DNA of 56,528 nucleotides, taken from NCBI GenBank assembly GCA_020024815.1, contig JAHHTE010000001.1, forward strand, positions 1-56,528, read 5' to 3'. Shown piece by piece: positions 6,251-56,528 of the stretch. The notes under the pieces were generated by a model. It was not told where the DNA came from. It ran no database searches and saw only the letters and a program-made list of their open reading frames with translations. The DNA is from Mailhella sp. Its GTDB lineage: Bacteria; Desulfobacterota; Desulfovibrionia; Desulfovibrionales; Desulfovibrionaceae. The position numbers and the translations under genes were made by a program. Within the stretch, counting starts at the first letter, position 1. Every line of letters begins with the position of its first letter.

Positions 6251-6279
6251 TTGACAAAGGATAGCTTTTTACGTAAAAA
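6251..6279 (+). promoter_or_regulatory. Sigma70-type promoter of tRNA-Glu
   Basis: TTGACA-17 bp-TAAAAA just upstream of the tRNA. Confidence 0.6.
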
Positions 6280-6295
6280 TTATTTCACGGCATAC

Positions 6296-6372
6296 GTCTC
6301 CATCGTCTAGCCGGCCCAGGACAGCGGCCTTTCACGCCGTCAACAGGGGTTCAAATCCCCTTGGAGACGCCA
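6296..6372 (+). tRNA. tRNA-Glu(TTC)
   Basis: Cloverleaf: acceptor GTCTCCA/TGGAGAC, anticodon loop CTTTCAC, T-loop TTCAAAT, encoded CCA. Confidence 0.97.
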
Positions 6373-6383
6373 AAATTAAAAAT
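6318..6383 (+). repeat. attL, left copy of 66-bp att direct repeat
   Basis: Matches 56463-56528 except C6328/T56473. Confidence 0.95.
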
Positions 6384-6404
6384 ATAATATTTTGATATAC
6401 TTAT

Positions 6405-6437
6405 AAACTCCCTAAAGGAAATTTAGGGAGTTTTTTT
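6405..6437 (+). terminator. Intrinsic terminator downstream of tRNA-Glu, supplied by the ICE
   Basis: Stem AAACTCCCTAAA/TTTAGGGAGTTT, loop GGAAA, followed by a T-run. Confidence 0.8.
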
Positions 6438-7079
6438 ATGTCTAATTTACAAGGTAAAAAGATATATCTGGCTTTACCTTATTCACATTCAGACCCTTAC
6501 ATCAGAGAAGTGCGATATAAAACTGCAACAAGCGTTGCAGCTTCTCTGATGAAACAAGGGGCTATTGTATTCTCTCCTATTACTTATGGACATCAGTTGT
6601 GCCAATTTGGTATAGATACAGGTTTTGAAACATGGTCAGGTATTGACTACCCAATGATTTCTTGGGCAGATGAATTATGGCTTTTAGAACTTGAAGGTTA
6701 TGATGTTTCTTTTGGCGTAAATGAAGAACTTGAATATGCTATGCGTCAAGGAATACCTGTTGTCCGCATTTCAGAAGATTCTCTTATAAATTTTACTCAG
6801 TATTCCCAACATAACTCTCCCTTAAACGTTGCAACTTCTGCTGTGTTTCCACGCATAGCAGAAGTTCGCTACGAAATTATTGTAAAATCAAAGTACAAGT
6901 ACGGCGATACCATATTTGTTATTAATGAAAACAATGAAATTTTAGAACAAGAAGTATATGAAATAGCTGTTGCTTGTATTCAAGATAGACAGACTATTTC
7001 TTACAACGGCTTCCACAGCAAACTTGTGTTTCCGTCTTATGACGCAGCCAAGAAAGCTCTGGAAGCCACTTTTATTTAA
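6438..7079 (+). CDS. DUF1937-like (nucleoside 2-deoxyribosyltransferase-like fold) phage-type protein with extra C-terminal domain
   Basis: KIYLALPYSH...VFSPITYGH...WADELWLL...SFGVNEELEYAMRQGIPV motif. Confidence 0.75.
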   Translation: MSNLQGKKIYLALPYSHSDPYIREVRYKTATSVAASLMKQGAIVFSPITYGHQLCQFGIDTGFETWSGIDYPMISWADELWLLELEGYDVSFGVNEELEYAMRQGIPVVRISEDSLINFTQYSQHNSPLNVATSAVFPRIAEVRYEIIVKSKYKYGDTIFVINENNEILEQEVYEIAVACIQDRQTISYNGFHSKLVFPSYDAAKKALEATFI

Positions 7080-7098
7080 ATAACAAAGGAGTTTTATA

Positions 7099-7326
7099 AT
7101 GAGAAAAGTGGAAATTAAAGTAAATATCGAAAATAAAATTAGTATATTAAAATTTGAGTTTGAAGAAGAAAATGCAGTAAACACTTTTTTTGAATGTAAA
7201 GATTTTTCTGCAATTGATCTTCTTAATTTATATGTTTTATTAGGTCAATGTGAAAAAAATTGTATTTTAACAAGAACTATGGGTGCATGGATGAAAACTC
7301 TTTCTTTAGCAAACGAAGAGCAATAA
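7099..7326 (+). CDS. Hypothetical protein (75 aa)
   Basis: AAGGAG RBS; co-oriented in an apparent operon. Confidence 0.7.
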   Translation: MRKVEIKVNIENKISILKFEFEEENAVNTFFECKDFSAIDLLNLYVLLGQCEKNCILTRTMGAWMKTLSLANEEQ

Positions 7327-7390
7327 GACGAAACGGTTCGCTAAGAGCCGTCTGCTTGATGTGGTGATCAAGCACTGATGAGTCAGCCAC
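7327..7390 (+). ncRNA. Type II hammerhead ribozyme
   Basis: GAC-GAAA-[CGGTTC gctaa GAGCCG]-TC-[TGCTTGAT gtggtg ATCAAGCA]-CTGATGA-GTC; intact core, GUC cleavage triplet, loop I/3' tail pseudoknot GTGGT:GCCAC. Confidence 0.92.
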
Positions 7391-7442
7391 TCAATTAATT
7401 ACTTCAAAGGATATTTTTGAAAAAAATTTTATAAGAACTATA

Positions 7443-7526
7443 AAAAAGTAAAACCACAAAAACTCGCAATTTTTGTGGTTTAGAAGAACTAAGACGTTTT
7501 ACCGTCCTTTAGTTTTCAAAAAGGAT
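7443..7526 (-). ncRNA. Putative antisense counter-transcript RNA in the rep leader (ends approximate)
   Basis: Minus-strand promoter at 7561-7533 and a terminator hairpin at 7451-7481 followed by a T-run on the minus strand. Confidence 0.6.
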
Positions 7527-7617
7527 GAGTAAAATATACGTCAATCGTGTCCGCTTGTCAAGAGTTAGGGTCTTATTTTTCATACTTTTTTTAGTTTTTC
7601 AAAAAGGAAAAAAGTAA
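7525..7617 (+). CDS. Possible 30-aa leader peptide coupled to rep
   Basis: MSKIYVNRVRLSRVRVLFFILFLVFQKGKK*; stop overlaps the rep start (TAATG); RBS spacing is poor. Confidence 0.35.
   Translation: MSKIYVNRVRLSRVRVLFFILFLVFQKGKK
7533..7561 (-). promoter_or_regulatory. Near-consensus sigma70 promoter, antisense to rep
   Basis: TTGACA (7561-7556), 17 bp spacer, TATATT (7538-7533). Confidence 0.7.
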
Positions 7618-8615
7618 TGGAAAACTTTATTGATTTTGTGCCAAACAAAATGGCTAGAGGTGTGGTTGTGCCAGATTTTATACGAAATGATGAAAGACTA
7701 GGAGCAGAAGCAATACTTATTTTTGCTAATCTATGCTCTTATAGTCGGCATAAAAACTACTGCTTTCCAAGCAAGGAAACACTTATGCTTGAAACGCGTT
7801 GTTCTTTTAACACACTTCAAAAATATTTAAATCAGCTCATTGAATTTGGTTATGTAAAAATCAAAAAAATCAATGGAAGAAATATGTTCTATTTATTTGC
7901 TCCAAAAGAAGAAATAGAACGTATTGAAGAACAAAATCAAATAGATAAACAAAAAAATTTAACTTCTAATTTCAAGGAACTTTCAAAATTTGAAACCGAA
8001 GTTAAAGAATTAAATATTAATATTACCCCCCTACCCCCTAAAAACTCCTCACAAACTTCTTCTAACCCTCTAACCTCTAATGTGGGTGATTTTAATGCTT
8101 TTTTTGAAATTTACCCCAATAAAACCAATAAATATAGAGCCTTAATTATATGCAAACGTCTTCAAAAAAAAGGATTATTGCCCACATTAGATTATTTCAA
8201 AAAAGTTATTGAATATTTTAAAAATACATTTCAATGGAATAAAGAAAATGGAAGATTTATTCCACAATTTGCCAACTTTCTCCTGAATGAAAAATGGAAA
8301 GAAGTTCCATTAGAATATTTTGAACCAAAACAAATGGATACTCATGTAATAGATGAAAAAAAAGCAACAGAAATATGGGAAAAGGAGAAAATGATAATAA
8401 AAAAAGAGAAAAATAATAATATTGATGACGACTTAGAAGTACAATGGAATGAATTTAAAAAGAATTTTAAAACAGACATTTCAATAAGAAGGTTTCAAGC
8501 AAAAGCTAAGTTTTTCCAACTCATAAAAGAAGGTTTTTCTTTTGGAGTTATTCAAAAAAATCTAACTATTACTCCGTTAGAATTTTTACAAAACATAAAA
8601 AATCAAGCTGTCTAA
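7617..8615 (+). CDS. HTH-domain replication initiator-like protein (phage type)
   Basis: N-terminal winged HTH (CFPSKETL...TLQKYLNQLIEFGYV), TPLPP linker, FNAFFEIYPNK and GRFIPQFANFLLNEKW motifs typical of phage replication proteins. Confidence 0.75.
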   Translation: MENFIDFVPNKMARGVVVPDFIRNDERLGAEAILIFANLCSYSRHKNYCFPSKETLMLETRCSFNTLQKYLNQLIEFGYVKIKKINGRNMFYLFAPKEEIERIEEQNQIDKQKNLTSNFKELSKFETEVKELNINITPLPPKNSSQTSSNPLTSNVGDFNAFFEIYPNKTNKYRALIICKRLQKKGLLPTLDYFKKVIEYFKNTFQWNKENGRFIPQFANFLLNEKWKEVPLEYFEPKQMDTHVIDEKKATEIWEKEKMIIKKEKNNNIDDDLEVQWNEFKKNFKTDISIRRFQAKAKFFQLIKEGFSFGVIQKNLTITPLEFLQNIKNQAV

Positions 8616-11911: not shown

Positions 11912-14292
11912 TGATAAAATTACAAGATTTTCGTTCAAAAGCAAGAGGTTTTTCCGACCTTCTAACGTATGCAGGATTAGTCGATAATGGGATTATTTTG
12001 CAAAAAGATGGGTCTTTTCTTGTTGCATATGAATATACAGGGAAAGATACTGACAGCTCAACAATGGAAGAATTAGAAAATCTTGTTTCTATAATTAACG
12101 ATGGAGTAAAATTACTTGGAACAGGATTTTGTATTCATGTTGATTCAATAAGAAGTTTTAAAAAAGCATATCCAGCAAGAGAGCTTTGTTTCTTCCCTGA
12201 TAAAATCACACAAATGATTGATGATGAAAGACGTGAGTTTTTTGGATCAGATGTTTGCTTTAAAACAAGAAATATTATTTCCATTACCTATAAACCTACT
12301 GGAATTATAGGAGAAAAAAATATTTTAAGTAATGGTTTAACTTTTTTCAAAAGTACATTGGAAAACTTTGAAGATAAGATTTCTAGTGTTCTTTATATAA
12401 ACAGATTAAAAGAATATGAATTAGAACTTGAACCTGATTTTTCCATTACCCAAAGCGATTTATTTACACATATAAATCAATGCATAACTGGTGAATTTCA
12501 ATGTATACAAGTTCCTAAAATACCCATGTATTTGGATAGTATTTTAGGAAATGAAGATTTTATTGGTGGATTTGCTCCCAAAATAGGAAATAAATTTATT
12601 AGAACAATTAGTATTGACGGATTTCCACAAGAAAGTTTTCCTTGTATGCTATCTATTTTTGATACACTTCCTTTTGAATTTCGATTTAATACACGTTTTT
12701 TGTGTTTAGATAACTTTGACGCTGTCAAAGAAACAGAAAAATATGTGAAAAGTTGGAATAGTAGTGTTCTTGGTTTTTTCGACAAAATATTTAATAACCC
12801 TAACCCAAAAATTAACCAAGACGCTATAATAATGAAAACTGACGCTGAAGAAGTAAAATTGGAAGTGCAATCCAATGATATTTCCGTTGGTTATATGACG
12901 TCTACAATCATCATTTTAGATGAAGAAGAAAATTCTTTAGAAGAAAAAGCAAGAGAAATTAGACGTGTATTACAAAATTTAGGTTTTACTTGCCGATTTG
13001 AAACAATCAATGCGATTGAAGCATATCTTGGTTCATTACCAGGCAATACTTACGCTAATTTGCGTAGACCATTGATAAAAACAAATAATTTAGCTGACTT
13101 ATTACCTTTATCAACTGTTTATGTCGGTGAAATGTATAATCCTTGTCCATTTTACCCTCAAGGATCTAGACCGTTAGCTGTATTTACAACAGATAATACC
13201 ACACCATTTTGGTTTAACATTCACAATGGTGATATTGGGCATACACTTATGCTCGGTCCGACTGGTGCAGGTAAATCAACATTTATTGCATTACTTGTTG
13301 CTCAATTTAGAGGATATAAAAATGCACAGATTTTTGCTTTTGATAAAGGTAACTCATTACTTCCTCTTTGCTATGGAGCAAACGGCTCTCATTATGAAAT
13401 AGGCGTAAATGAAGAGCTTTGCTTTTGTCCTTTACAAAATATTGATGAAAGTCCTGCCGAAATGGCTTTTTGTGAAGAATGGATAGCTATGCTTTTAGAA
13501 TTACAAAGTTATAAACTTACTCCAAAAGCAAAAAATGAAATACACAATGCAATGGAAAATCTTGCTACGCAACCTAAAAATATGCGTTCAATTACTAACT
13601 TTATCTTTTTAGTGCAAGATATTGAGATAAAAGAAGCTCTTAATCCATACTCAAGAAATGGTGTTTATAAAAACTTGATTGATTCAGATAGTGATACATT
13701 AGGCTTATCTTCTTTTATTGTTTTTGAAATGGAAGAAATAATGAATATGGGAGATAAAATTCTTATTCCTATTCTGACGTATATTTTTCATAGAATAGAA
13801 AAATCTTTGAAAGGACAACCCTCTTTACTTGTTCTTGATGAAGCATGGATCATGCTTGGACACCCAGTATTTAGAGCTAAAATAAGAGGATGGCTTAAAG
13901 TTCTTCGTAAAGCAAATTGTGCAGTATTTTTAGCAACACAAAGTTTATCAGATATAAAAAATTCAGGCATTATGGACGTTTTAGTTGAGTCTTGCCCAAC
14001 CAAAATTTTATTACCTAACGCAAACGCAATACAAGAAGAACAATACAAACTTTATAAAGATATTGGTCTTAACGATCGTGAAATAGAAACACTATCAAGA
14101 TACGCATTACCTAAAAAAGATTATTACATTATAAATAGTTATGGTCGTAGATTAGTTCAGTTAGCTTTAGAAAAAAAGACACTCGCTTTTGTAGGTGCAA
14201 GCGATAAAGAAAGCATTGCACGCATAAAAGAACTTAGAGCAGAAGATAACAATAATTGGCAAGATAGATGGATTGCTGAAAGGGTAAGATAG
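11911..14292 (+). CDS. trbE: TrbE/VirB4 ATPase
   Basis: GHTLMLGPTGAGKST, FAFDKG, LDEAW, LRKANCAVFLATQS. Confidence 0.95.
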   Translation: MIKLQDFRSKARGFSDLLTYAGLVDNGIILQKDGSFLVAYEYTGKDTDSSTMEELENLVSIINDGVKLLGTGFCIHVDSIRSFKKAYPARELCFFPDKITQMIDDERREFFGSDVCFKTRNIISITYKPTGIIGEKNILSNGLTFFKSTLENFEDKISSVLYINRLKEYELELEPDFSITQSDLFTHINQCITGEFQCIQVPKIPMYLDSILGNEDFIGGFAPKIGNKFIRTISIDGFPQESFPCMLSIFDTLPFEFRFNTRFLCLDNFDAVKETEKYVKSWNSSVLGFFDKIFNNPNPKINQDAIIMKTDAEEVKLEVQSNDISVGYMTSTIIILDEEENSLEEKAREIRRVLQNLGFTCRFETINAIEAYLGSLPGNTYANLRRPLIKTNNLADLLPLSTVYVGEMYNPCPFYPQGSRPLAVFTTDNTTPFWFNIHNGDIGHTLMLGPTGAGKSTFIALLVAQFRGYKNAQIFAFDKGNSLLPLCYGANGSHYEIGVNEELCFCPLQNIDESPAEMAFCEEWIAMLLELQSYKLTPKAKNEIHNAMENLATQPKNMRSITNFIFLVQDIEIKEALNPYSRNGVYKNLIDSDSDTLGLSSFIVFEMEEIMNMGDKILIPILTYIFHRIEKSLKGQPSLLVLDEAWIMLGHPVFRAKIRGWLKVLRKANCAVFLATQSLSDIKNSGIMDVLVESCPTKILLPNANAIQEEQYKLYKDIGLNDREIETLSRYALPKKDYYIINSYGRRLVQLALEKKTLAFVGASDKESIARIKELRAEDNNNWQDRWIAERVR

Positions 14293-14294
14293 TT

Positions 14295-15155
14295 ATGTGT
14301 AAAGAAACAGGTTTTAAATGGAAAGATATTTATATTTGGGGTGAAAATAACCAAGCTCAGCGTGTTAATACAATCGAACAAGCCTTAAAACAAGGTGATT
14401 TGGGTTGTTATGTAATTTGTGATACAGATGATTATTTTGCGACTGGTTATGGTTATTCACTCGAAGAAGCTCTTGTAGGTTTAATAATTGATTCAGGACT
14501 TCAAGAACATATTCTTGATCAGCAAGAGTGCATTAAATTTAGTGCCTATCTTCCTGAAAAATTGGGAGCAGATTTGTGTGTATATCCTGCGAGTGAACAA
14601 CTAATTAGCGAAGTAGAACATTATTGTTCCGTTCAATGTAAGTTTACAGGAAAAATGGCTGAACGACTTGATAATTCTAGTCTTCAAAGATTTATTGCAC
14701 GATTTAAGCAAGTTATTCAAAGTTATAATTTAAAATATCCTATTATTTCTGTTTATGTTCCTGAAAATGAGAAAGACCCTAAACTTTATTATCCTATGAG
14801 ATATGTAAAAGAATATCTTCCTTTTATAAAAGACCAAGAAGAATTGTATGCTCTTGAAAAAGAACTCGCAACTCAAACAAAAATTTTTATCAAACTTACT
14901 GATAAAAAACATGTTCTATTATTTGAGTTTGTTCTTGTATGCTCTTCTGGAAATAATCTTTTTAATAGCGAAGTATTAGAACTTGATAATGTCCATTATA
15001 TTAAAAATAATTTAATAAGGTATGAAGCGTTAGATTTTATTAATGAAATCTTCTTCAGTGAAGAATTTTCAAAACATTATTATACAAGTCTAGCTCCTGA
15101 ACTCCTGAATTCTTTCAGCTCTGATAATTTTTATTTTCTTCACCCAGTAAAATAG
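14295..15155 (+). CDS. Hypothetical protein, paralog A1
   Basis: Clearly homologous to 15798..16655. Confidence 0.8.
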   Translation: MCKETGFKWKDIYIWGENNQAQRVNTIEQALKQGDLGCYVICDTDDYFATGYGYSLEEALVGLIIDSGLQEHILDQQECIKFSAYLPEKLGADLCVYPASEQLISEVEHYCSVQCKFTGKMAERLDNSSLQRFIARFKQVIQSYNLKYPIISVYVPENEKDPKLYYPMRYVKEYLPFIKDQEELYALEKELATQTKIFIKLTDKKHVLLFEFVLVCSSGNNLFNSEVLELDNVHYIKNNLIRYEALDFINEIFFSEEFSKHYYTSLAPELLNSFSSDNFYFLHPVK

Positions 15156-15167
15156 GAGAGAACGATT

Positions 15168-15605
15168 ATGTCATGGTTTTATTGTTCGGATGATGAAGTC
15201 AGAAAAATTTTAGAAAGAAAATTATCTGATGTTGATACCCTTGTCGAAATTATAAAAGTAAAAGCAAACTCATACGGTTCTCTTTTTGTTCATGTCCCTC
15301 CTCCTGAATATTATTATTTTTCTGATATTATCCTTGAAATAGTAAGCCATGATACAAGAGATTATTTTAAAATTTTACCAAGTAAACAAAATTCATTTTG
15401 TAATATACGAGAAAGAACATATTACAAAAGTACATGTTACAGTTTTATGTATTTTTATAATATATTCCTTGAGGTTAAACTAATAAAAGATTTTGTTAAA
15501 AAAATAATGATGGATAATCATTTTATGGCAAAATCTCTGATAACCATGCAGTTAGGAGCAAAAGGAATGAATGTTATACATGAATTATCATCATTTTTAA
15601 AATGA
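15168..15605 (+). CDS. Hypothetical protein, paralog B1
   Basis: Homologous to 16668..17111; AGGAG RBS. Confidence 0.8.
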   Translation: MSWFYCSDDEVRKILERKLSDVDTLVEIIKVKANSYGSLFVHVPPPEYYYFSDIILEIVSHDTRDYFKILPSKQNSFCNIRERTYYKSTCYSFMYFYNIFLEVKLIKDFVKKIMMDNHFMAKSLITMQLGAKGMNVIHELSSFLK

Positions 15606-15778
15606 GTATATTTTTCAGATAATTCAGTTGGGGTATTACTGATAGTTGGAGTTCCAAATATATAAATATAAAAGTTTTTATTCTGTTCACAATAAGTTTT
15701 CCAATTTTTATGACAATCTTTAATTGCAGATATAAAAGTAGGAGTATTAGTATCAGGATTTACTTTAATAATAACAGG
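15518..15778 (-). pseudogene. 5'-truncated paralog of the 342-aa minus-strand gene
   Basis: Open frame PVIIKVNPDTNTPTF...YIYIFGTPT...PTELS...SCITFIPFAPNCMVIRDFAIK* matches the C-terminus of 17006..18034; cut at the duplication junction. Confidence 0.8.
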
Positions 15779-15797
15779 CTGAAAGGGTAAGATAGTT

Positions 15798-16655
15798 ATG
15801 TGTAAAGAAACAGGTTTTAAATGGAAAGATATTTATGTTTGGGGTGCATTTGACCAAAATCAACGAGTTGACACAATTGAACAAGCTTTTAAAGAAGACC
15901 GCTTAGGTTGCTATATAATTTGTGATGCCAATAACCACATTGTAAAAAGTTTTGGGTATCAACTCGACGAAGCTCTTGTAGGTTTAATAATTGATTCAGG
16001 ACTTCAAGAACATGTTCTTGATCAGCAAGAGTGCATTAAATTTAGCGACCATCTTCCAGAAAAATTGGGAGCTGATTTGTGTGTATATCCTGCAAGTGAA
16101 AAACTAATTTGCGAAGCAGAACATAACTGCTCTGTACAATGTAAATTTACAGGCAAACTAGCTGTTCGAGCAGATAATTTCAGTCTTCAAAAATTTATTG
16201 CACAATTTAAACAATTTATCCAAAGCTATAATTTGGAAAATCCAGTCATTTCTGTTTATGTACCCGAAAATGAAAATGACTCTCTGCTCTATCATCCAAT
16301 GAGATATGTAAAAGAATATCTTCCTGATATAAAAGACTATGAAGAACTGTATGTATATGAAAAAGAACTAGCAACTCAAACAAAAATCTTTATAAAGATT
16401 TGTGATAAAAAGCATGTTTTAATATTTGAATTTGTTCTTGTTTGTTCGTCTAATGAAGTTTTTAATAAAGATATAATAGAAATTGGTAATATTCATTATA
16501 TCAAGAATAATTTAATAAGAAACAATGTCAGAGATTTTATAAAGATAATTTTCTTTGATGAAGAATTTACAGAACATTTTTATACAAGCCTTGCCCCTGA
16601 GCTTTTGAATTCTTTTAGTTCCAATAATTTTTATTTTCTTCACCCGATAAAATAG
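15798..16655 (+). CDS. Hypothetical protein, paralog A2
   Basis: Homologous to 14295..15155. Confidence 0.8.
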   Translation: MCKETGFKWKDIYVWGAFDQNQRVDTIEQAFKEDRLGCYIICDANNHIVKSFGYQLDEALVGLIIDSGLQEHVLDQQECIKFSDHLPEKLGADLCVYPASEKLICEAEHNCSVQCKFTGKLAVRADNFSLQKFIAQFKQFIQSYNLENPVISVYVPENENDSLLYHPMRYVKEYLPDIKDYEELYVYEKELATQTKIFIKICDKKHVLIFEFVLVCSSNEVFNKDIIEIGNIHYIKNNLIRNNVRDFIKIIFFDEEFTEHFYTSLAPELLNSFSSNNFYFLHPIK

Positions 16656-16667
16656 GAGAAAACGATT

Positions 16668-17111
16668 ATGTCATGGTTTTATTGTTCTGATGATGAAGTC
16701 AAAAAAATTATAGAAAAGAAATTATCTGAAGTAGATACCCTTATTGAAATCATAAAAGTAAAAACTAATAATTTGGGTTCACTCTTTGTTTATGTTCCTC
16801 ACACAAAGGACTATGCAAACAAAAATGCTAAAATGATTATTGAAATAACAGCGTGTAATGAAAAAATTTATTTTACAATTTTATTTGATAAAAAAAGTTC
16901 TTTTTTGAATATGAAAGAAAGAACATATTATAAAGGTAGCCGTTATAAGTGCATACATTTTTATAATATATCTCTTTCTGTCAATTTAATAAGAGACTTT
17001 ATAGCTCAATTATTTTCATCTTTTTGTTTTATCTCAAAATCTCTAATAACCATGCAATTGGGAGCAAACGGAGTAAATGTTATACATGATTTACCATATT
17101 TTTTTAAATAA
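16668..17111 (+). CDS. Hypothetical protein, paralog B2
   Basis: Homologous to 15168..15605. Confidence 0.8.
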   Translation: MSWFYCSDDEVKKIIEKKLSEVDTLIEIIKVKTNNLGSLFVYVPHTKDYANKNAKMIIEITACNEKIYFTILFDKKSSFLNMKERTYYKGSRYKCIHFYNISLSVNLIRDFIAQLFSSFCFISKSLITMQLGANGVNVIHDLPYFFK

Positions 17112-18034
17112 TTAAGTTTATTGGATAGTTCTGTAGGAATAGTTCCTAACGTTGGAGTTCCAACTATATAAATATAATAGGATGTTCCGTTTTTTTGATA
17201 TAATTTTCTATCATCATAGCGAGTTCTAATATCATTCATAAAATTACGAGTATTTGTGTTTGGGTCAACAGTAATAATTATTGGAAGACAAATTCCATTA
17301 TAATCGACAGGATAACAAGAGATATAAAATGTATCATCAAATTTATACACAATTGCTTTTTTCCAAAAAATATGAAGTGTGTCATCTAATTTTTTTGATT
17401 CATTCATATCAAAAAATAACTCGTTATACGTACAACGTTTGTCAGGAGGTACCGTTATAAAAACTCTATCTAAGTCGTTATGGTCAGCTAATTCTTTTGC
17501 TTTATCAATAATTTTTGCAAGAGAGTTTGTTCTTCTAGGAGTAGTATAACAATATCTTTGTATTTCTGTTTTTGAAGTACAGTTATTAGCTTTTATTTGT
17601 TGTTTTATTTCAGAATGATAATCTGGAATTTGAGGATTAAAAACTATTTCGTCATAAGCAAAATGAGAACTATCATGAGAAACCTCTTGAACAATATTGT
17701 AAATTGGTTGGTTATTTGCTTGAAGGTTGGCTCTTATTTGTCTTTGATTGGCGATTACTTCCTCAACATTTTGAGAAACAATTGTATAATTGCAGTTTTC
17801 ACTATGTTTATGGTTTGGACATATGGCAAAATAAGGAGAAACTTTATAAGTTTCATTTGGAGTATGTGGGCAAGCACATGCTTTCATGCGAGTTTCAGGG
17901 CATTCATGTCTGCAATCTTCATCGGGGCATAATAATGTAAGAGGTTCAGTATGGTCTTTTGTGTAAGTAATATAATCTTCGGTAGAAATTTCAGTTTGAA
18001 GTTCTTGGCAATAAACAGTTTCAAATTTAGCCAT
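17006..18034 (-). CDS. Hypothetical protein with N-terminal Cys/His (zinc-binding-like) domain
   Basis: LLCPDEDC...PYFAICPNHKHSENC; AAGGAG RBS; 3' end overlaps paralog B2 in antisense. Confidence 0.8.
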   Translation of the reverse strand: MAKFETVYCQELQTEISTEDYITYTKDHTEPLTLLCPDEDCRHECPETRMKACACPHTPNETYKVSPYFAICPNHKHSENCNYTIVSQNVEEVIANQRQIRANLQANNQPIYNIVQEVSHDSSHFAYDEIVFNPQIPDYHSEIKQQIKANNCTSKTEIQRYCYTTPRRTNSLAKIIDKAKELADHNDLDRVFITVPPDKRCTYNELFFDMNESKKLDDTLHIFWKKAIVYKFDDTFYISCYPVDYNGICLPIIITVDPNTNTRNFMNDIRTRYDDRKLYQKNGTSYYIYIVGTPTLGTIPTELSNKLNYLKKYGKSCITFTPFAPNCMVIRDFEIKQKDENN

Positions 18035-41210: not shown

Positions 41211-41736
41211 TATTTTTTTCATTTGTGGAAAAGCACAAGCTTTTACTATACTTGACGCTACTAGCTTTGACCCACAACCAGTTAAAGTAGAAGCAAAAAA
41301 TAATTCTGTTCCAATCGGTACAGTAATAGTATGGACCAAAAATGAAATTCCAGACGGTTGGTTAGAATGCAATGGGCAAGCTGTTAATCACGATTTGTTT
41401 CCTGAACTTTCTATGTTAATGAAAAATGTTCCTGATTATAGAAATAGATTTTTACAAGGGACAAACAACGGAATAGTCGGTGAAAAACTAGAAGCAGGAC
41501 TTCCTAATATAACAGGAAGTTATGACAGTTGGAACAATGGGTTTTCGGCTGGTCTTATTACAGAAGGAGCATTTAAAAATACAAAAACAAGTCGATATAT
41601 TGCAGCAGACATAGCAAGCTTTGGCTTTGGAGTAAATGTTCAGTTTGATGCTTCATTATCTAATTCTATTTATGGAAGTTCTAATACAGTTCAACCACCA
41701 GCAATAACAGTAAAATACATCATAAAAGCAGAATAG
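41182..41736 (+). CDS. Secreted phage tail-collar/tail-fibre-tip domain protein 1
   Basis: Sec signal (AQA); VPIGTVIVW...PDGWLECNGQ...PDYRNRFLQG collar motif; GLPNITG...TVQPPAITVKYIIKA tail. Confidence 0.85.
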   Translation: MKLICLILLNIFFICGKAQAFTILDATSFDPQPVKVEAKNNSVPIGTVIVWTKNEIPDGWLECNGQAVNHDLFPELSMLMKNVPDYRNRFLQGTNNGIVGEKLEAGLPNITGSYDSWNNGFSAGLITEGAFKNTKTSRYIAADIASFGFGVNVQFDASLSNSIYGSSNTVQPPAITVKYIIKAE

Positions 41737-41746
41737 GAGTAATAAA

Positions 41747-42320
41747 ATGAAAAAGAAACTTTTTTGGGCGTCGCTCATATATATATATATATAGCGTAAC
41801 ACCCCAAAATGCTTATGCAATCAAAGATGCAACAAGTTTTAATCCAGAACCAGTTAAAGTAGAAGCAAAAAATAATTCTGTTCCAATCGGAACTGTTATT
41901 GTATGGACCAAAAATGAAATTCCAGAAGGTTGGCTTGAATGTAATGGACAAGCAGTCAATCAAGATTTATATCCAGATTTATTTGCTCTTATGAACAAAA
42001 CACCAAACTATCAAGGATATTTTTTGCGTGGACTTGGTGGAAATAGTGAAAAATTAGGAATTGAACAACAAAATGCAATGCTAGACTTAACTGAAGGAGT
42101 AATTAATGGACCAGTTATGCTTAATGGATTTGGAAATACTGATGGAGCAACAGGAGTTTTTAGTGCAGTTCCTAATAAAACAGCATGGGCAATTAAATAT
42201 GAGTTTGGTTGGACAAATGCAACAAGTATAAAGTTTGATATTCAAAATGCAGGAATTCCTGTTGCTAATGAAATAAGACCAATAAATAAGGCAGTAAAAT
42301 ACATTATAAAAGCAGAATAG
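41747..42320 (+). pseudogene. Secreted tail-collar domain protein 2, frameshifted in an (AT)8A tract (candidate phase-OFF state)
   Basis: ATG 41747 reads to TAG at 41792; the frame from 41793 (SVTPQNAYA|IKDATSF...VKYIIKAE) is intact to 42320. Confidence 0.85.
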
Positions 42321-42330
42321 GAGTAATAAA

Positions 42331-42582
42331 ATGAATATAAAACCAAAAGAAACATTTGAAAATCGTGCTATATATCAAAACAAAGTAGAAGAAAACCATT
42401 GTCCCAATTGTGATGAACCGCTTATTTTTGGTTTAAAAGATAACTACCATGAGTTTTCAATAGGGCTGTCAACTGTATTACAGCTTCTTTTGGTTGCAGA
42501 AAAACAAGGATATGTTCCAAAACTGCCCAGTGAATGGATTGTACAGGTTTTAAATGAATTTTACATGGTAAAAAGGGAGTAA
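42331..42582 (+). CDS. Hypothetical protein (83 aa)
   Basis: AGGAG RBS; contains CPNC. Confidence 0.75.
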   Translation: MNIKPKETFENRAIYQNKVEENHCPNCDEPLIFGLKDNYHEFSIGLSTVLQLLLVAEKQGYVPKLPSEWIVQVLNEFYMVKRE

Positions 42583-44185: not shown

Positions 44186-47100
44186 ATGCCAAAGAAAAAA
44201 ACACGTCCTACGGGGCAACATAGTCTATTAGATTTTATACCTGATTGTATTGAAAATCTTAGACAAGAAAACGAAAAAGAAGAAGCATATTCAAGAAGTA
44301 TGCTATTAGAAAATCAAACAATAACCAATAAGGAGAATGAACATGAGTATAGAGAGCAATATGTCAGCGGGTCAAATAGCACTACGAATAATGGATATAA
44401 AAATTTATCGATGGCTAGCATACGAAATGGGAATGTTAGGATCAACAACAGCAATGAAAATCTTGGACAGATGGGCATTGAACAATCCAGAGAAATTAAA
44501 AGAACTAGAGAAAAAACGGAATGGGACAGAACTATATTTAAAGTTGACGGAACAGGAGGAGAAAGAAATGGAAGCAATAGAAACAGACAGATATTGGGAT
44601 TTGATAGACAGTGGAATGAGTCATTGGGAAGCATTGAAAATGTTAGGGGTACAGACAGAATTATAGAAACCTATATTATCACTGATAGTGATAATATAGG
44701 TATTGGTACTCCAAAACAAAAGTACCAGGACAATATTAATGCTTTAAAAGTTCTATATAATCTTAGAAAAAATAAGTCTGAACTTGCAACAAAAGAAGAA
44801 CAAGCTATTCTTGTCAAATATGTTGGTTGGGGTGGACTTCCTCAAGCCTTTGATGAAAATAATGAACAATGGCAAAATGAATATAAAGAACTTAAAGCAT
44901 TACTTACAGAAGAAGATTATTCTAATGCTAGACGTTCCACGCAAGACGCCCATTTTACGCCTAAAAATATCATTGATACTATGTATCAAGGTTTGAAACA
45001 ATTTGGAGTAAAAAATACAGTACATATTTTAGAACCATCAGCAGGAATAGGTAATTTTATTGGATTTAAACCACAAAATTTTGATGCTAAATTTACAACT
45101 ATTGAACAAGATACTATTTCTGCTGATATTCTAAATTATCTTTACCCTAAGGAAAAAATATTTTGTAGACCATTTCAAGACATTCCCCAAAAAAATCCTC
45201 ATTTTGATGTAACCATTGGTAATCCACCTTTTGGACAAACAAGACTTTATGATAAAAATTTTCCAGAATTAGATTTTTCAATACATAATTATTTTATTGC
45301 TAAGTCTATGGAATTAGTAAAAGAAGGTGGTCTTGGAGCTTTTGTTGTTAGTCGTTATTTTATGGATAGTGTAAATAATGAACATAGACAATATCTAGCA
45401 CAAAATTCTCACTTTTTAGGAGCAATACGTTTACCTAATACTGCTTTTAAACAAAATGCTCTTACAGAAGTTACAACGGATATAGTCTTTTTTCAAAAGA
45501 AAACCGAGTATGAAAAACAAAATAATATTAGTAAAGGATATACTGATTGGGTACATACAACCGAGAAAGAATTTGAGCATAAAATAAATGTTACTTTTTT
45601 AGATAAGCCAATTCCTACAATAACAAAAACAGCAACAATTAATAAGTATTTTGCTGATAATTCTAAACAAGTTTTAGGTAATTTAGAATTAGGTGGAAAA
45701 TTTGGTAATGAATTAAATTGTATTGGTACTGCTGAAAAAGATATTAATATTGCAATGCAAGAAGCATTGCAAATACTTCCTAAAAATATTTTTAACAATA
45801 CTATTACCTATGAAAACCCATTTGCAGTTAAAGAATATACAGAACTTGAAAAACGTATTCTTAATTCTGAACGATTTAAAAAATTAAAAAAAGATTCTTT
45901 AATCGAAAGTACCAATGGTAAAATTTATAAAAAAACACAAGATGAACTTGGCGAAGATATATTATTAGAAGTTCCACTTGCTCACAAAAATGATGTACAA
46001 CGTATAACTGGTTTAATTCAAATTCGTGATACCTTAAGAACTTTATTTGAATTAGAAAAAAGTCCAGAAAATAATGAAGTTGATATTGAACGTTATCGTA
46101 AACGATTAAATATAAGTTATGATAATTTTGTAAATAAATTTGGACTATTAAATTCAAGTAAAAATAGGATTGTTTTTAAAGAAGATCCAGAAGCAACACT
46201 TATTCAAGCTCTTGAAGTTGACTATGATAAAGGCATAACAAAAAGTGAAGCAATAAAAGAAGATGTTGAAGAAAGAAAAGCAAGTGCAAAAAAAGCAAGC
46301 ATTTTTTCTAAACGGTGCTTTTACTTTATTGAACCAGCTAAGACAGCTGAAACTTCTAAAGAAGGTTTGCTTATTTCTTTACGAGAAAGTGGATCTATTG
46401 ATTTTGAAAGAATATCGCAACTAGTAGGAAAATCAGAACAAGAAGTAAAACAAGAGTTATTGGGAACATTTGTTTTTAAAAATCCATATACACAAAAATA
46501 TGAAGTTGCTGATAAATATCTTACTGGAAATATACGCAAAAAACTTGAGCAAGCAAAAAAAGCTGTTGCAATGAACCCACAATATCAACTCAATATTGAA
46601 GCTCTTGAAAAAGCCATGCCAAAAGATATTGAAGCAGCTGATATTAGTGTTCGTTTTGGCTCTACATGGATACCAGAAAAAGATGTAAAACAATTTATTA
46701 CAGAAGTAATAAGTGAAATAGCATTTTATAATGATGAAGTACATTATATCCCTGAAGTAGGACGATGGACAGTAAGTATCAACTTGCTTAATAGTTCTGC
46801 TAATAACTATATTTTTGGTACAGAAGAATATCCTGCAAGTAGGATTATCAAATCATTACTTGAAAATACACAAATAAAAGTAATGAAAGATACAGGCGAA
46901 AAAGATAGTAATGATAAGCCAATAAAAATTCTTGATACAGAAGCTACTGCTGCTGCAATGGAAAAAGCTGAAAAAATACAAGACGCTTTCCAAAAATGGA
47001 TATGGAGCGATGAAGAAAGACGTAATCGTTTAGCAAAAATTTATAATGAAAAATTTAATACACATGTTCCCGTACAATATGACGGAAGCCATGTTGAATT

Positions 47101-49825: not shown

Positions 49826-50380
49826 ATGGCTAATGTTGGTTATATTAGAGTAAGCACCACTGACCAAGAAACAGGAAGACAACTTGATAAAGTTGTTCTT
49901 GATAAGGTTTTTGAAGAAAAAATAAGTTCTGCAACACCTAATAGACCAATATTAGCCGAATGTTTAAACTACCTTCGTGAAGGTGATATTTTCTATATTC
50001 ACTCCATAGATAGACTGGCTAGAAATTTGATAGAATTACAAAATATTGTTAGCTCATTGGTAGATAAAGGAGTAGAAGTACGCTTTTACACGGAAAACTT
50101 GACCTTTTCAAAAGGTTCTTCCCCAATGCAAGAACTCATGCTCCAGGTACTTGGTGCGTTCGCCCAATTTGAACGTAAACTCATCAGAGAACGCCAACAA
50201 GAAGGCATAAATAATGCCAAGAAACAAGGAAAATATTTAGGCAGACCTAAGAAACTTTCCGATGAAGACAAAAAACTTATTCTTGAAATGTATAACGACG
50301 GCTGTACTCCAAGCTTTATTGCGAATAAATTTGATGTATCAATTTCTTCAGTATATAAGATAATAAAATATAAATTATAA
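49826..50380 (+). CDS. Serine recombinase (resolvase/invertase family)
   Basis: VGYIRVST, SIDRLARN, FAQFERKLIRERQQEG, GRPKKL, C-terminal HTH. Confidence 0.95.
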   Translation: MANVGYIRVSTTDQETGRQLDKVVLDKVFEEKISSATPNRPILAECLNYLREGDIFYIHSIDRLARNLIELQNIVSSLVDKGVEVRFYTENLTFSKGSSPMQELMLQVLGAFAQFERKLIRERQQEGINNAKKQGKYLGRPKKLSDEDKKLILEMYNDGCTPSFIANKFDVSISSVYKIIKYKL

Positions 50381-55539: not shown

Positions 55540-56400
55540 CTAAATATGATTATTTTGTGTATTAGTTAAAAGTGTAACGGCATACCTGTTCTGATTGGGG
55601 GCTAAGTGAGCATATCTCATGGTCATTTTTAAATCTTTATGACCTAATAGATTGCCCACAACCAATAAAGGAACTCCTTTTTGAACCAACCAAGATGCAA
55701 AAGTATGCCGTAATGTATGAAAAACAACTTTATTTCGGCGGTCAACAATATTTTGATTCAATGACGTTTTCTTAATTGTTTCACGAAATATTTTTGATAC
55801 CTGTAAAATTTGTTTTTCAGAAAAAAGATATTGCATTTGCTTTTTGTAATATTTTACAACAATTTTAAATGCAATATCATTAAGTGGAATTATCCTAGTT
55901 ACATTATTTTTAGTCTCAAATAATGTAATTGTTTTTTGTTCCCAATTTATATTTGTTGACTGCAATGAGAATATCTCACCTGCACGCATTCCAGTATGAA
56001 GAGCGAATAAGGTAATGTCATACCAAAGTTCATTTTTGTTGTGGAGTGCATCCAATAACAAGTCAGCTTCAGCTTGACTTAAAAATCTGACTCGAGCATT
56101 GTTTGTTATTGGCATTTCGAAGTGTGGAAGTTGTATTGACAATAAATCTAATTGAATAGCTCTATTTACAGACCGTCTCAATAATGACAAACAATGTTTA
56201 ATAGATTGTTGACTCAAGTTAGTTTTTGAAAGATATTGTCGATACTTAATTATATCTTTGGCACACAATGTATCAAAATCCTTATTACACCAATAAGGAT
56301 AAATATGACGATTATATCGTTGAATTTCTTTTTTGATACTGTTTGGTTTAAATTCCTTTGTGCCTAGATACAATTCCCATATTTCGTTAATTGTAACCAT
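55540..56400 (-). CDS. int: Tyrosine recombinase/integrase
   Basis: TGMRAGE, FHTLRHTFASW, LLGH...MTMRYAH; adjacent to attR. Confidence 0.95.
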   Translation of the reverse strand: MVTINEIWELYLGTKEFKPNSIKKEIQRYNRHIYPYWCNKDFDTLCAKDIIKYRQYLSKTNLSQQSIKHCLSLLRRSVNRAIQLDLLSIQLPHFEMPITNNARVRFLSQAEADLLLDALHNKNELWYDITLFALHTGMRAGEIFSLQSTNINWEQKTITLFETKNNVTRIIPLNDIAFKIVVKYYKKQMQYLFSEKQILQVSKIFRETIKKTSLNQNIVDRRNKVVFHTLRHTFASWLVQKGVPLLVVGNLLGHKDLKMTMRYAHLAPNQNRYAVTLLTNTQNNHI

Positions 56401-56462
56401 AATATAACTCTCCTTTAAGGGTTTTTATAAAGAGTTATATCGAATAATTATATTTTTAAACA

Positions 56463-56528
56463 AGGACAGCGGTCTTTCACGCCGTCAACAGGGGTTCAAA
56501 TCCCCTTGGAGACGCCAAAATTAAAAAT
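56463..56528 (+). repeat. attR (3' fragment of tRNA-Glu)
   Basis: 65/66 identity to 6318-6383; may extend beyond the window. Confidence 0.95.

Follow-up and report, generated by a model that had tools for sequence, protein, structure and literature searches.

What would a self-cleaving RNA do at the head of the leader of a replication-initiator gene, in an element that spreads by conjugation? The question is raised by a stretch of 56,528 nucleotides (nt) from Mailhella sp., a member of the Desulfovibrionaceae (assembly GCA_020024815.1, contig JAHHTE010000001.1, positions 1 to 56,528 of the forward strand), which we analysed at its full length and call the window. Judged by its genes and its ends, the setting is an integrative conjugative element (ICE) of about 50 kb, bounded by repeats of the 3′ part of a tRNA-Glu gene. 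A preliminary description of this DNA had placed there an intact type II hammerhead ribozyme, between the first operon of the ICE and the gene rep, and our domain and repeat searches agree with that placement, the operon being a block of two genes. We found that the RNA belongs to a known ribozyme family, that its stems covary among relatives, that its position before rep is conserved and that a conserved antisense promoter and terminator lie in the leader which it heads.

The identity of the ribozyme is soon settled. The Rfam search suggested in the preliminary description (cmscan) assigns positions 7326-7392 of the plus strand to RF02276, Hammerhead_II, with a score (57.4 bits, E 2.8e-9) above the gathering score, which is 37. 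All 66 model positions (1-66) are covered, the first of them by A7326. Only two gathering-level Rfam matches occur in the 56.5-kb window, this one and the tRNA; searching the whole genome gave an identical result, the window copy being the sole Hammerhead_II match of its own assembly (2.12 Mb in 243 contigs, 94.9% complete). A custom covariance model, made from 22 rep-linked copies, scores it at 77.3 bits. A nested fold finds stems III and I at -22.8 kcal/mol, and 2 of 200 shuffled sequences fold equally well. The ribozyme of the window is thus, by a match far beyond chance, an ordinary and regular member of its family.

Its parts can be laid out base by base. Stem II consists of three pairs, G7327-A7328-C7329 with G7382-U7383-C7384. 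The residues G12-A13-A14 of the hammerhead numbering are 7330-7332, and A7333 opens stem III (7333-7339 with 7345-7351), seven pairs that include one U-G. The triplet G7350-U7351-C7352 places the predicted cleavage between C7352 and U7353, where the eight pairs of stem I begin (7353-7360 with 7367-7374), followed by the core CUGAUGA at 7375-7381. Loop I (7361-7365) joins the tail (7386-7390) in a pseudoknot of four Watson-Crick pairs and U7365-G7386. The catalytic core is complete, with CUGAUGA, the GAA at 7330-7332, A7333-U7351, C7352 as a non-G at position 17, and G7382-C7329. Loops close stems I and III and stem II is open, which is the type II topology. Stems, core, GUC triplet and pseudoknot had all been placed correctly in the preliminary description, as had the start of the ribozyme on the base after the stop codon of a 75-residue open reading frame (ORF): the stop is 7324-7326, the next base 7327.

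Is this RNA maintained for its structure? In an alignment of 22 rep-linked copies, 95.9% of the cells that should pair hold standard pairs, a value that falls to 29-46% when the 3′ partners are slid along the sequence. Changes on both sides affect 12 of the 21 pairs (8/8 in stem I, 3/5 in stem III, 1/3 in stem II), and the covariation score is attained by none of 500 shuffles. In stem II, the middle pair is G-C in 11 copies and A-U in 9. The pseudoknot takes part as well, with 91.8% of its cells paired in the 22 copies and its column pair 50-77 reading UG 10 times, UA 9 times and CG twice. Among the 460 cells, 55 are G-U pairs, which would be mismatches if read on the other strand, so that the structure is specific to the plus strand. 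GAAAC, GUC and CUGA-GA are invariant over a range from 30% to about 70% G+C, and the core (GAAA, CUGANGA and a non-G at the cleavage site) is complete in 42 of 44 complete copies, the defective ones being those of loci L075 and L101. This pattern of substitution indicates that the copies are under selection as plus-strand RNA.

What they travel with is a replication initiator. Our first sample comprised 101 genomes of the window's relatives, 26 of which hold a Hammerhead_II match. In the same genus, six of the 11 other genomes do so, with seven hits in all; each of the seven precedes, by 194-248 nt and in the same orientation, a rep homolog with 28-40% protein identity. The 22 best-scoring hits of other genera are enclosed by the ORFs of Mu-like prophages (the neighbours include Mu Gam, Mor, Mu transposase, HU-like and capsid/protease genes), with no rep match there; in 20 of these 22 loci the gap to the upstream stop codon is between -3 and +14, an overlap or an abutment in most. 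A wider sample of 80 loci was then recovered from genome records with an alignment of seven rep homologs, nearly all of them titled Mailhella, Desulfovibrio, Bilophila or Desulfovibrionaceae. Of these, 28 have a gathering-level Hammerhead_II match before rep and in its orientation, and the custom model (E<=1) finds one in 43 of the 80, with no match on the opposite strand or elsewhere in the 507 kb. Six of the 80 loci have less than 250 nt upstream and cannot be judged, which leaves 43 of 74 assessable loci; seven of the ribozyme-negative ones are partial matches, to the C-terminal domain, from other phyla.

The distance between ribozyme and rep is about 190-250 nt, with exceptions of roughly 470-570 nt in L095, L101 and L102, and the linkage holds for Rep proteins down to about 22-30% identity. 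Within 3-kb flanks, parA follows rep in 22 of the 43 ribozyme loci and trbB in 17, so that at least those share the backbone of the window. The upstream side, by contrast, differs from locus to locus: a tRNA gene followed by a DUF1937 gene and an ORF, a tRNA gene alone, a tRNA gene and a terminator, other and often small ORFs, or a relaxase region. DUF1937 itself occurs in 2 of the 43. When rep was compared by tblastn with collections of plasmids (72,556 records) and phages (50,697 records), no match at E<=1e-5 came up. Many loci stem from metagenome bins, some with doubtful taxonomic labels, and related loci are not independent, so that our counts describe a distribution and are not statistics; the carriers nevertheless span many independent lineages and include several cultured strains, to judge by their titles (Desulfovibrio piger, D. 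falkowii and Desulfovibrio sp. ZJ369). In L044 there are two nearly identical hammerheads, 1.4 kb apart, one at the start of the contig (1-49), 26 nt before an HU-like ORF, the other (1460-1525) before rep; this doubling suggests that the ribozyme unit is also put to use for cutting between genes.

The region behind the ribozyme is conserved too. Leaders were aligned for 39 loci (L055, L089, L095, L101 and L102 were left out), and they keep one order: hammerhead, hairpin with a GGA loop, antisense-RNA region, Shine-Dalgarno sequence, rep. More finely, the GGA hairpin is followed by an A run and a second hairpin, by a minus-strand TAnnnT-17-TTGACA/G, by phased T runs, which resemble an UP element when read on the minus strand, then by the Shine-Dalgarno sequence and the rep start. 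In 32 of 40 loci the ribozyme is directly followed by a hairpin with a stem of at least 5 bp and a GGA or GAGA loop, as happens in 17% of shuffled sequences, and its stem covaries; it might, as a guess, be a Shine-Dalgarno-like or a CsrA-type site.

The central part of the leader had been missed by the preliminary description. On the minus strand 46 of 55 loci have a promoter of the form TTGACN-17-TAnnnT, and 53 of 55 have a terminator hairpin with its T run, from 30% to 70% G+C, and all six of the terminator pairs predicted by RNAalifold (6/6) have compensatory changes. Over the 55 loci the estimated transcript measures 61-86 nt, with a median near 69. Promoter and intrinsic terminator together define a conserved candidate counter-transcribed RNA of about 70 nt within the rep leader. 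In a permissive scan the locus L066 matches ctRNA_pGA1 (RF00236) on the expected strand and at the expected place with 25.1 bits (E 0.0077), below the cut-off of 45, and the window has no gathering-level match to that family in the Rfam scan; the candidate would work like a counter-transcribed RNA while not being filed as a member of the family. In the window, a 13-nt string complementary to the 5′ stem-loop of the counter-transcript recurs over the Shine-Dalgarno sequence of rep, and none of 300 shuffles equals this repeat. Other lineages have the same arrangement with different strings (11 of 55 loci at <=3 of 300 shuffles), and the element-X group, described below, lacks it. Where it is present, the counter-transcript could pair directly with the ribosome-binding site. 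A leader peptide was also considered, in the 30-codon frame that runs from the ATG at 7524 to the TAATG at the rep start, and rejected: in L039, inspected by eye, this frame stops after 14 codons.

Where, then, does the RNA come from that contains the ribozyme? Our promoter and terminator calls are consensus matches, and the promoter scan is blind to other sigma factors. Within this limit, the plus strand between 6051 and 7989 has a promoter-like site (>=9/12) only at 6251-6280, that of the tRNA gene, and none in 6281-7989; the tRNA promoter is the only such site upstream of rep within 1.3 kb. Inspection of the 39 aligned leaders discloses no conserved plus-strand promoter between ribozyme and rep, where the minus-strand one is evident, nor is one conserved on the upstream side of the ribozyme. 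A TTGAAA-16-TATAAA at 7417-7444 occurs in the window only, and L052 has about 30 nt in that place. A tRNA gene on the same strand lies within 350 nt upstream of the ribozyme in 17 of the 43 loci, and a terminator-like hairpin with a T run within 160 nt in 20 of them (a crude scan). In L069, L078, L104, L109 and L061 this terminator ends just 17-27 nt short of the ribozyme, so that a promoter would not fit in between; in the remaining loci ORFs run up to the ribozyme. With no promoter adjoining it, the ribozyme is apparently reached by transcription that starts at a greater distance, either passing the terminator which the element itself places behind the tRNA gene or coming from cargo ORFs.

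From this arrangement we infer cleavage in vivo, a source for the transcript and an effect on rep expression. The RNA polymerase would arrive from upstream, having read through the terminator behind tRNA-Glu or transcribed the block formed by the DUF1937 gene and the 75-residue ORF. The ribozyme would then fold and cut after C7352, leaving an upstream RNA that ends in the stem III hairpin with a 2′,3′-cyclic phosphate, and a rep leader that starts at U7353 with its 5′-OH inside the stem I hairpin, tied to the tail by the pseudoknot. The leader would have this same 5′ end and fold whether a tRNA gene or a cargo ORF lies upstream, and whether the element is integrated or excised as a circle; its folding, the antisense control of rep and the lifetime of the mRNA would be insulated from context. 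A ribozyme cannot halt transcription: it only sets where RNAs begin and end. Here it would mark the 5′ boundary of a conserved replication-control cassette in a tRNA-integrating conjugative element. That the conserved partner is the rep leader follows from the minimal arrangements, in which what is cut off upstream amounts to a tRNA trailer and a terminator hairpin, of no evident use. We hold it to be probable, with a good deal of reserve, that the ribozyme cuts read-through or operon RNA so that the rep leader always has the same hairpin-capped 5′-OH end. The preliminary description had already proposed a defined 5′ end for this leader; the constancy of the place before rep amid varying upstream neighbours speaks for that proposal, and a proposal it stays here.

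Several facts weigh against it. Among sequencing runs, none of RNA was listed that contains this stretch, the best DNA run having 0.41 of its words, a result that has no bearing on expression. With a terminator-like hairpin between tRNA gene and ribozyme, in the window and in those 20 of 43 relatives, little RNA may read through. If a promoter lay between ribozyme and rep, the ribozyme would be no part of the rep mRNA. The host has RNase E/G and RNase J, its RNase J homolog scoring 465 bits against a cut-off of 400, and in Bacillus subtilis RNase J1 degrades the 5′-OH product of the glmS ribozyme, a precedent by which cleavage could destabilise the leader rather than protect it. The ribozyme is, besides, dispensable, since 16 homologous loci have another element in its slot and eight full-length loci have neither. 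We place no weight on RtcB, which was not found in the 94.9%-complete assembly. Finally, stem II of the window has three pairs, and in one construct a pair added to stem II lowered activity (PMC3088659).

Some of these facts could be turned into an explanation of their own, in which the ribozyme cuts transcripts that have escaped from upstream, the 5′-OH piece is degraded, by RNase J for example, and rep is expressed only from an unrecognised promoter of its own. Terminator and ribozyme would then resemble two barriers in series, the host encodes a suitable nuclease, and in the excised circle rep has to be expressed with no tRNA promoter to drive it, the outward promoter-like sites at the right end of the element (56347-56403) being weak (9/12). 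Yet a second terminator would be a simpler barrier than a ribozyme, which does not stop RNA polymerase; a 5′ end paired in stem I and tied by the pseudoknot would offer poor entry to a 5′ exonuclease; and no conserved plus-strand promoter stands between ribozyme and rep in the aligned leaders, out of which the minus-strand one stands. Decoupling by destruction appears unlikely to us. A further thought is that cleavage might be modulated, by a protein, by the GGA hairpin or by pairing of the CUC tail, and would switch between an integrated and a replicating or transferring state. The Shine-Dalgarno-like hairpin that so often follows the ribozyme and the tail conserved beyond the pseudoknot in the rep-linked subclass could be the means of it, and allosteric control has been proposed for bacterial hammerheads (PMC3088659). 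The ribozyme is complete, however, and should fold before the downstream hairpin is transcribed, and inspection of the leader alignment revealed no disruptive alternative pairing conserved across AT-rich and GC-rich lineages, so that we consider such regulation distinctly less than likely, with perhaps a small chance of being right.

The beneficiary of the cut might also be the upstream RNA, which would gain a hairpin-capped 3′ end with a 2′,3′-cyclic phosphate, be it the mRNA of the DUF1937 gene and the 75-residue ORF or a tRNA precursor freed of its tail. The ribozyme of the window does begin on the base after an upstream stop codon, just as the prophage copies of the same bacterial family overlap or abut theirs in most loci. 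Conservation points the other way, however: DUF1937, present in 2 of 43 rep-linked loci, is no constant partner, the upstream RNA is in many loci merely a tRNA trailer with a terminator hairpin, and the distance that is kept is the one to the leader and rep. Service to the upstream RNA is in our opinion very improbable. The least credible of the alternatives is that of a functionless passenger, the relic of a phage-derived cassette travelling with rep: loss and decay are indeed visible in relatives, with the core mutated in L082 (by eye), the core defects of L075 and L101, and the eight full-length loci with no ribozyme, but an invariant core, stems that compensate over Rep proteins of about 22-30% identity and from 30% to 70% G+C, and a fixed position are not what one expects of a relic, the covariation already speaks against neutral decay at the pace of the flanking sequence, and we would be surprised if this were the explanation.

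If the insulation of the rep leader matters, what happens in the cassettes without a hammerhead? Sixteen loci (L058, L063-L068, L071, L072, L074, L076, L077, L084, L086, L106 and L111) keep the hairpin, the counter-transcript unit and rep, and have in the slot of the ribozyme, again after a terminator, another sequence that we call element X. This is a conserved, GC-rich stretch of about 110 nt (2680-2793 in L066, for example), with invariant CCUCC and GAUGCCCAC motifs. Compared with Rfam, it matches no family at E<=10, ribozymes included. A coding role was considered, as a helix-turn-helix-like frame starts inside it, and discarded: relatives differ by indels of 2 nt and 4 nt. RNAalifold gives a weak consensus (-7.07 kcal/mol) on a MAFFT alignment, while folds of single sequences have one long hairpin in common, in which L126 shows two compensatory changes. 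A blastn search of 401 genomes of the family returned about 10 clear hits, too alike for a test of covariation.

We made a quick maximum-likelihood tree of the N-terminal 240 residues of Rep (63 rows, midpoint root), without L052, L056, L080 and L082 (in which a stop interrupted the frame that we had assumed), L104, the seven partial matches and the six loci that could not be judged. Each of the three main groups contains cassettes with the ribozyme; of the 16 X cassettes, 15 fall in one starred clade (99), nested among ribozyme-bearing ones. The X clade agrees with the ribozyme having been replaced once by another RNA element, and the starred branches are compatible with a single origin. Eight further full-length loci have neither hammerhead nor element X; in L082 a decayed core can be recognized by eye. 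To judge by record titles, both types of cassette occur together in single genomes (L061/L084, L096/L063, L081/L111 and L095/L072), and such co-occurring cassettes differ in the loops of their counter-transcripts, which is what one would expect of antisense RNAs that set incompatibility. Earlier classes of ribozymes were discovered by looking where hammerheads and twisters occur. It is tempting to think that the slot demands a self-processing RNA, that the hammerhead is a natural insulator, and that element X, perhaps with three helices, is a new class of self-cleaving ribozyme or some other autonomous processing signal; this is a speculation to which we attach little probability.

The features of the element that bear on this discussion are collected in Table 1.

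Table 1. Coordinates of the main features of the Mailhella sp. window; promoters, terminators and the counter-transcribed RNA are predictions.
Feature	Position	Strand	Evidence or remark
Promoter-like site before tRNA-Glu, TTGACA-18-AAAAAT	6251..6280	+	10/12, consensus match only
tRNA-Glu (anticodon ttc), integration target	6296..6372	+	
attL-side (left) copy of the 66-nt direct repeat, from the tRNA 3′ part	6318..6383		98% identical to 56463-56528
Terminator-like hairpin and T run, just inside the element	6405..6433	+	12 pairs
ORF, DUF1937 / nucleoside 2-deoxyribosyltransferase-like	6438..7079	+	PF09152, 3.2e-13; phrog_355, 2.4e-14
75-residue ORF, no known family; its stop abuts the ribozyme	7099..7326	+	Weak homologs in L016, L019
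Type II hammerhead ribozyme	7326..7392	+	Rfam, covariation in relatives, custom model
Hairpin 1, 6-bp stem, GGA-containing loop	7403..7421	+	
Candidate counter-transcribed RNA, about 80 nt, ends approximate	7443..7526	-	Terminator hairpin 7481->7451 and T run
Site 1, first copy of the 13-nt repeat, complementary to the counter-transcript 5′ stem-loop	7513..7525	+	
Counter-transcript promoter, TTGACA-17-TATATT	7533..7561	-	11/12
Second copy of the 13-nt repeat, over the rep Shine-Dalgarno sequence	7596..7608	+	8 nt before the ATG
rep, replication-initiator-like, HTH_36	7617..8615	+	PF13730; phrog_270, 2.9e-23
Tyrosine integrase, far end of the element	55540..56400	-	PF00589, 4.8e-33
Right tRNA-derived direct repeat, attR side	56463..56528		Runs to the window end

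The hallmarks of an ICE all lie within its bounds: direct repeats of the tRNA gene, an integrase (PF00589), a relaxase (PF03432), a coupling protein (PF02534) and type IV secretion, for which TrbB/C/E/L, VirB3/8, CagX and TrbI domains were found. As the right repeat touches the end of the window, the right junction is incomplete. The gene rep opens a close-packed run of plus-strand genes into parA and trbB-trbE. Besides rep and parA the element contains a weakly TraM-like ORF, trbB/C/D/E, trbL, virB8/9/10 and the coupling protein, an ArdC-primase, topoisomerase III, a cluster for a type IVb pilus, the relaxase with NikA, and toxin-antitoxin pairs. Of the label rep/traKLM in the preliminary description, the traKLM part has behind it only the weak TraM-like match, at 25.4 bits against a cut-off of 139. 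The terminator-like hairpin at 6405-6433, which that description did not report, separates the tRNA from the genes of the ICE; the ATG of the first ORF comes directly after its T run, and the terminator behind the regenerated tRNA-Glu is supplied by the element.

Other peculiarities of the element lie far from the ribozyme. In the transfer region a tandem duplication of about 1.4-1.5 kb (14275-15674 and 15778-17180, 79-84% identity) covers the ORFs 14295-15605 and 15798-17111, of no known family. Between 39168 and 42582 a PilV-like gene with a shufflon N-terminal domain is followed by repeated segments (41239-41426 / 41811-41998 and 41708-41759 / 42292-42343) and by an ORF with a tail-collar domain; these segments may be alternative adhesin tips, and the nearest recombinase that we saw is a gene of serine resolvase type at 49826-50380. 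Near the right end of the element, an ORF of 1875 residues (44186-49813) joins Eco57I-type methylase and SNF2/helicase domains.

How does the arrangement compare with what is known? Perreault et al. (2011; PMC3088659), in the parts of that paper on which we draw, describe type II hammerheads with a pseudoknot critical for speed, and bacterial hammerheads that are often near integrase or prophage genes, in clusters that flank genes in polycistronic RNA, or next to ardA. A review of 2017 (PMC6155905) treats, in the portion relevant here, the role of prokaryotic hammerheads as an open question, and both sources accord with the statement of the preliminary description that type II hammerheads occur mainly in phage contexts and have a poorly understood role. 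The rep-linked copies share with Hammerhead_II (RF02276) the 13-nt core, the circular permutation and the pseudoknot between loop I and the 3′ tail. They differ from it in a stem II of three pairs, which is one more than in the prophage copies and requires an insertion in the Rfam alignment, in a conserved CAGCCRCUC tail, and in scores of 37-58 bits where prophage copies of the same bacterial family reach 58-80; moreover, their place is in a conjugative element, some 200 nt ahead of its replication-initiator gene, and not between phage ORFs.

A near case is that of Desulfovibrio vulgaris, belonging to the same bacterial family, three type II hammerheads of which cleave in vivo according to Olzog et al. 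(2021; PMC8782182), whose cyPhyRNA-seq captured the 2′,3′-cyclic phosphate and 5′-OH ends. As far as the loci are described in the part of that paper used here, these ribozymes lie near hypothetical, phage-like and DNA-binding-protein genes, as in our loci L002-L030, and not before rep. The hammerheads associated with ardA (flanking it in Agrobacterium tumefaciens, preceding it in Legionella; PMC3088659) likewise stand upstream of a gene of transferable elements and cut polycistronic RNA into units; in the account given in the relevant section they belong to other hammerhead types, concern another gene and have no antisense-RNA leader. The counter-transcribed RNAs of plasmids, such as ctRNA_pGA1 and RNAII of pMV158 (PMC4485353, in the part bearing on RNAII), have as here a short antisense RNA with a 5′ stem-loop, a terminator and a strong promoter in the rep leader. 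In several of our lineages the 5′ stem-loop of the counter-transcript is complementary to the Shine-Dalgarno region of rep. No replicon of this kind with a ribozyme heading the leader is reported in the literature that we searched, which is thin in subscription journals.

Human engineers seem to have come to a similar device: in RiboJ, reportedly introduced by Lou and colleagues in 2012, a synthetic hammerhead placed after variable promoters and 5′ sequences is said to cut itself so that the mRNA has a constant, hairpin-capped 5′ end. RiboJ is synthetic and derived from a type III satellite-RNA hammerhead, whereas the ribozyme of the window is natural, of type II, and would act as an insulator. 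The glmS ribozyme is likewise bacterial, cleaves itself within a 5′ leader and thereby determines what becomes of the mRNA behind it; it needs a metabolite, and its 5′-OH product is degraded. No ligand is indicated for the window ribozyme, by contrast, and the 5′ end after cleavage is predicted to be structured. Our literature search, which did not extend to most subscription journals and to supplementary lists of hammerheads, found no report of a hammerhead that heads a rep leader, adjoins a counter-transcribed RNA or belongs to an ICE. What is new is thus the conserved context before rep and the hypothesis that it allows; the ribozyme itself is a regular member of its family.

Most bacterial hammerheads lie among small phage ORFs of unknown function, a setting that gives no hint of a phenotype. 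A constant position in front of an antisense-controlled replication initiator, a circuit of a well-understood kind, changes this, in that it leads to predictions about the 5′ end and the stability of the rep mRNA, about copy number, and about insulation from tRNA read-through. Type II hammerheads, known from prophages, are thereby seen to live in conjugative elements as well, and the module to which they belong there points to an uncharacterised structured RNA, element X, in the same slot.

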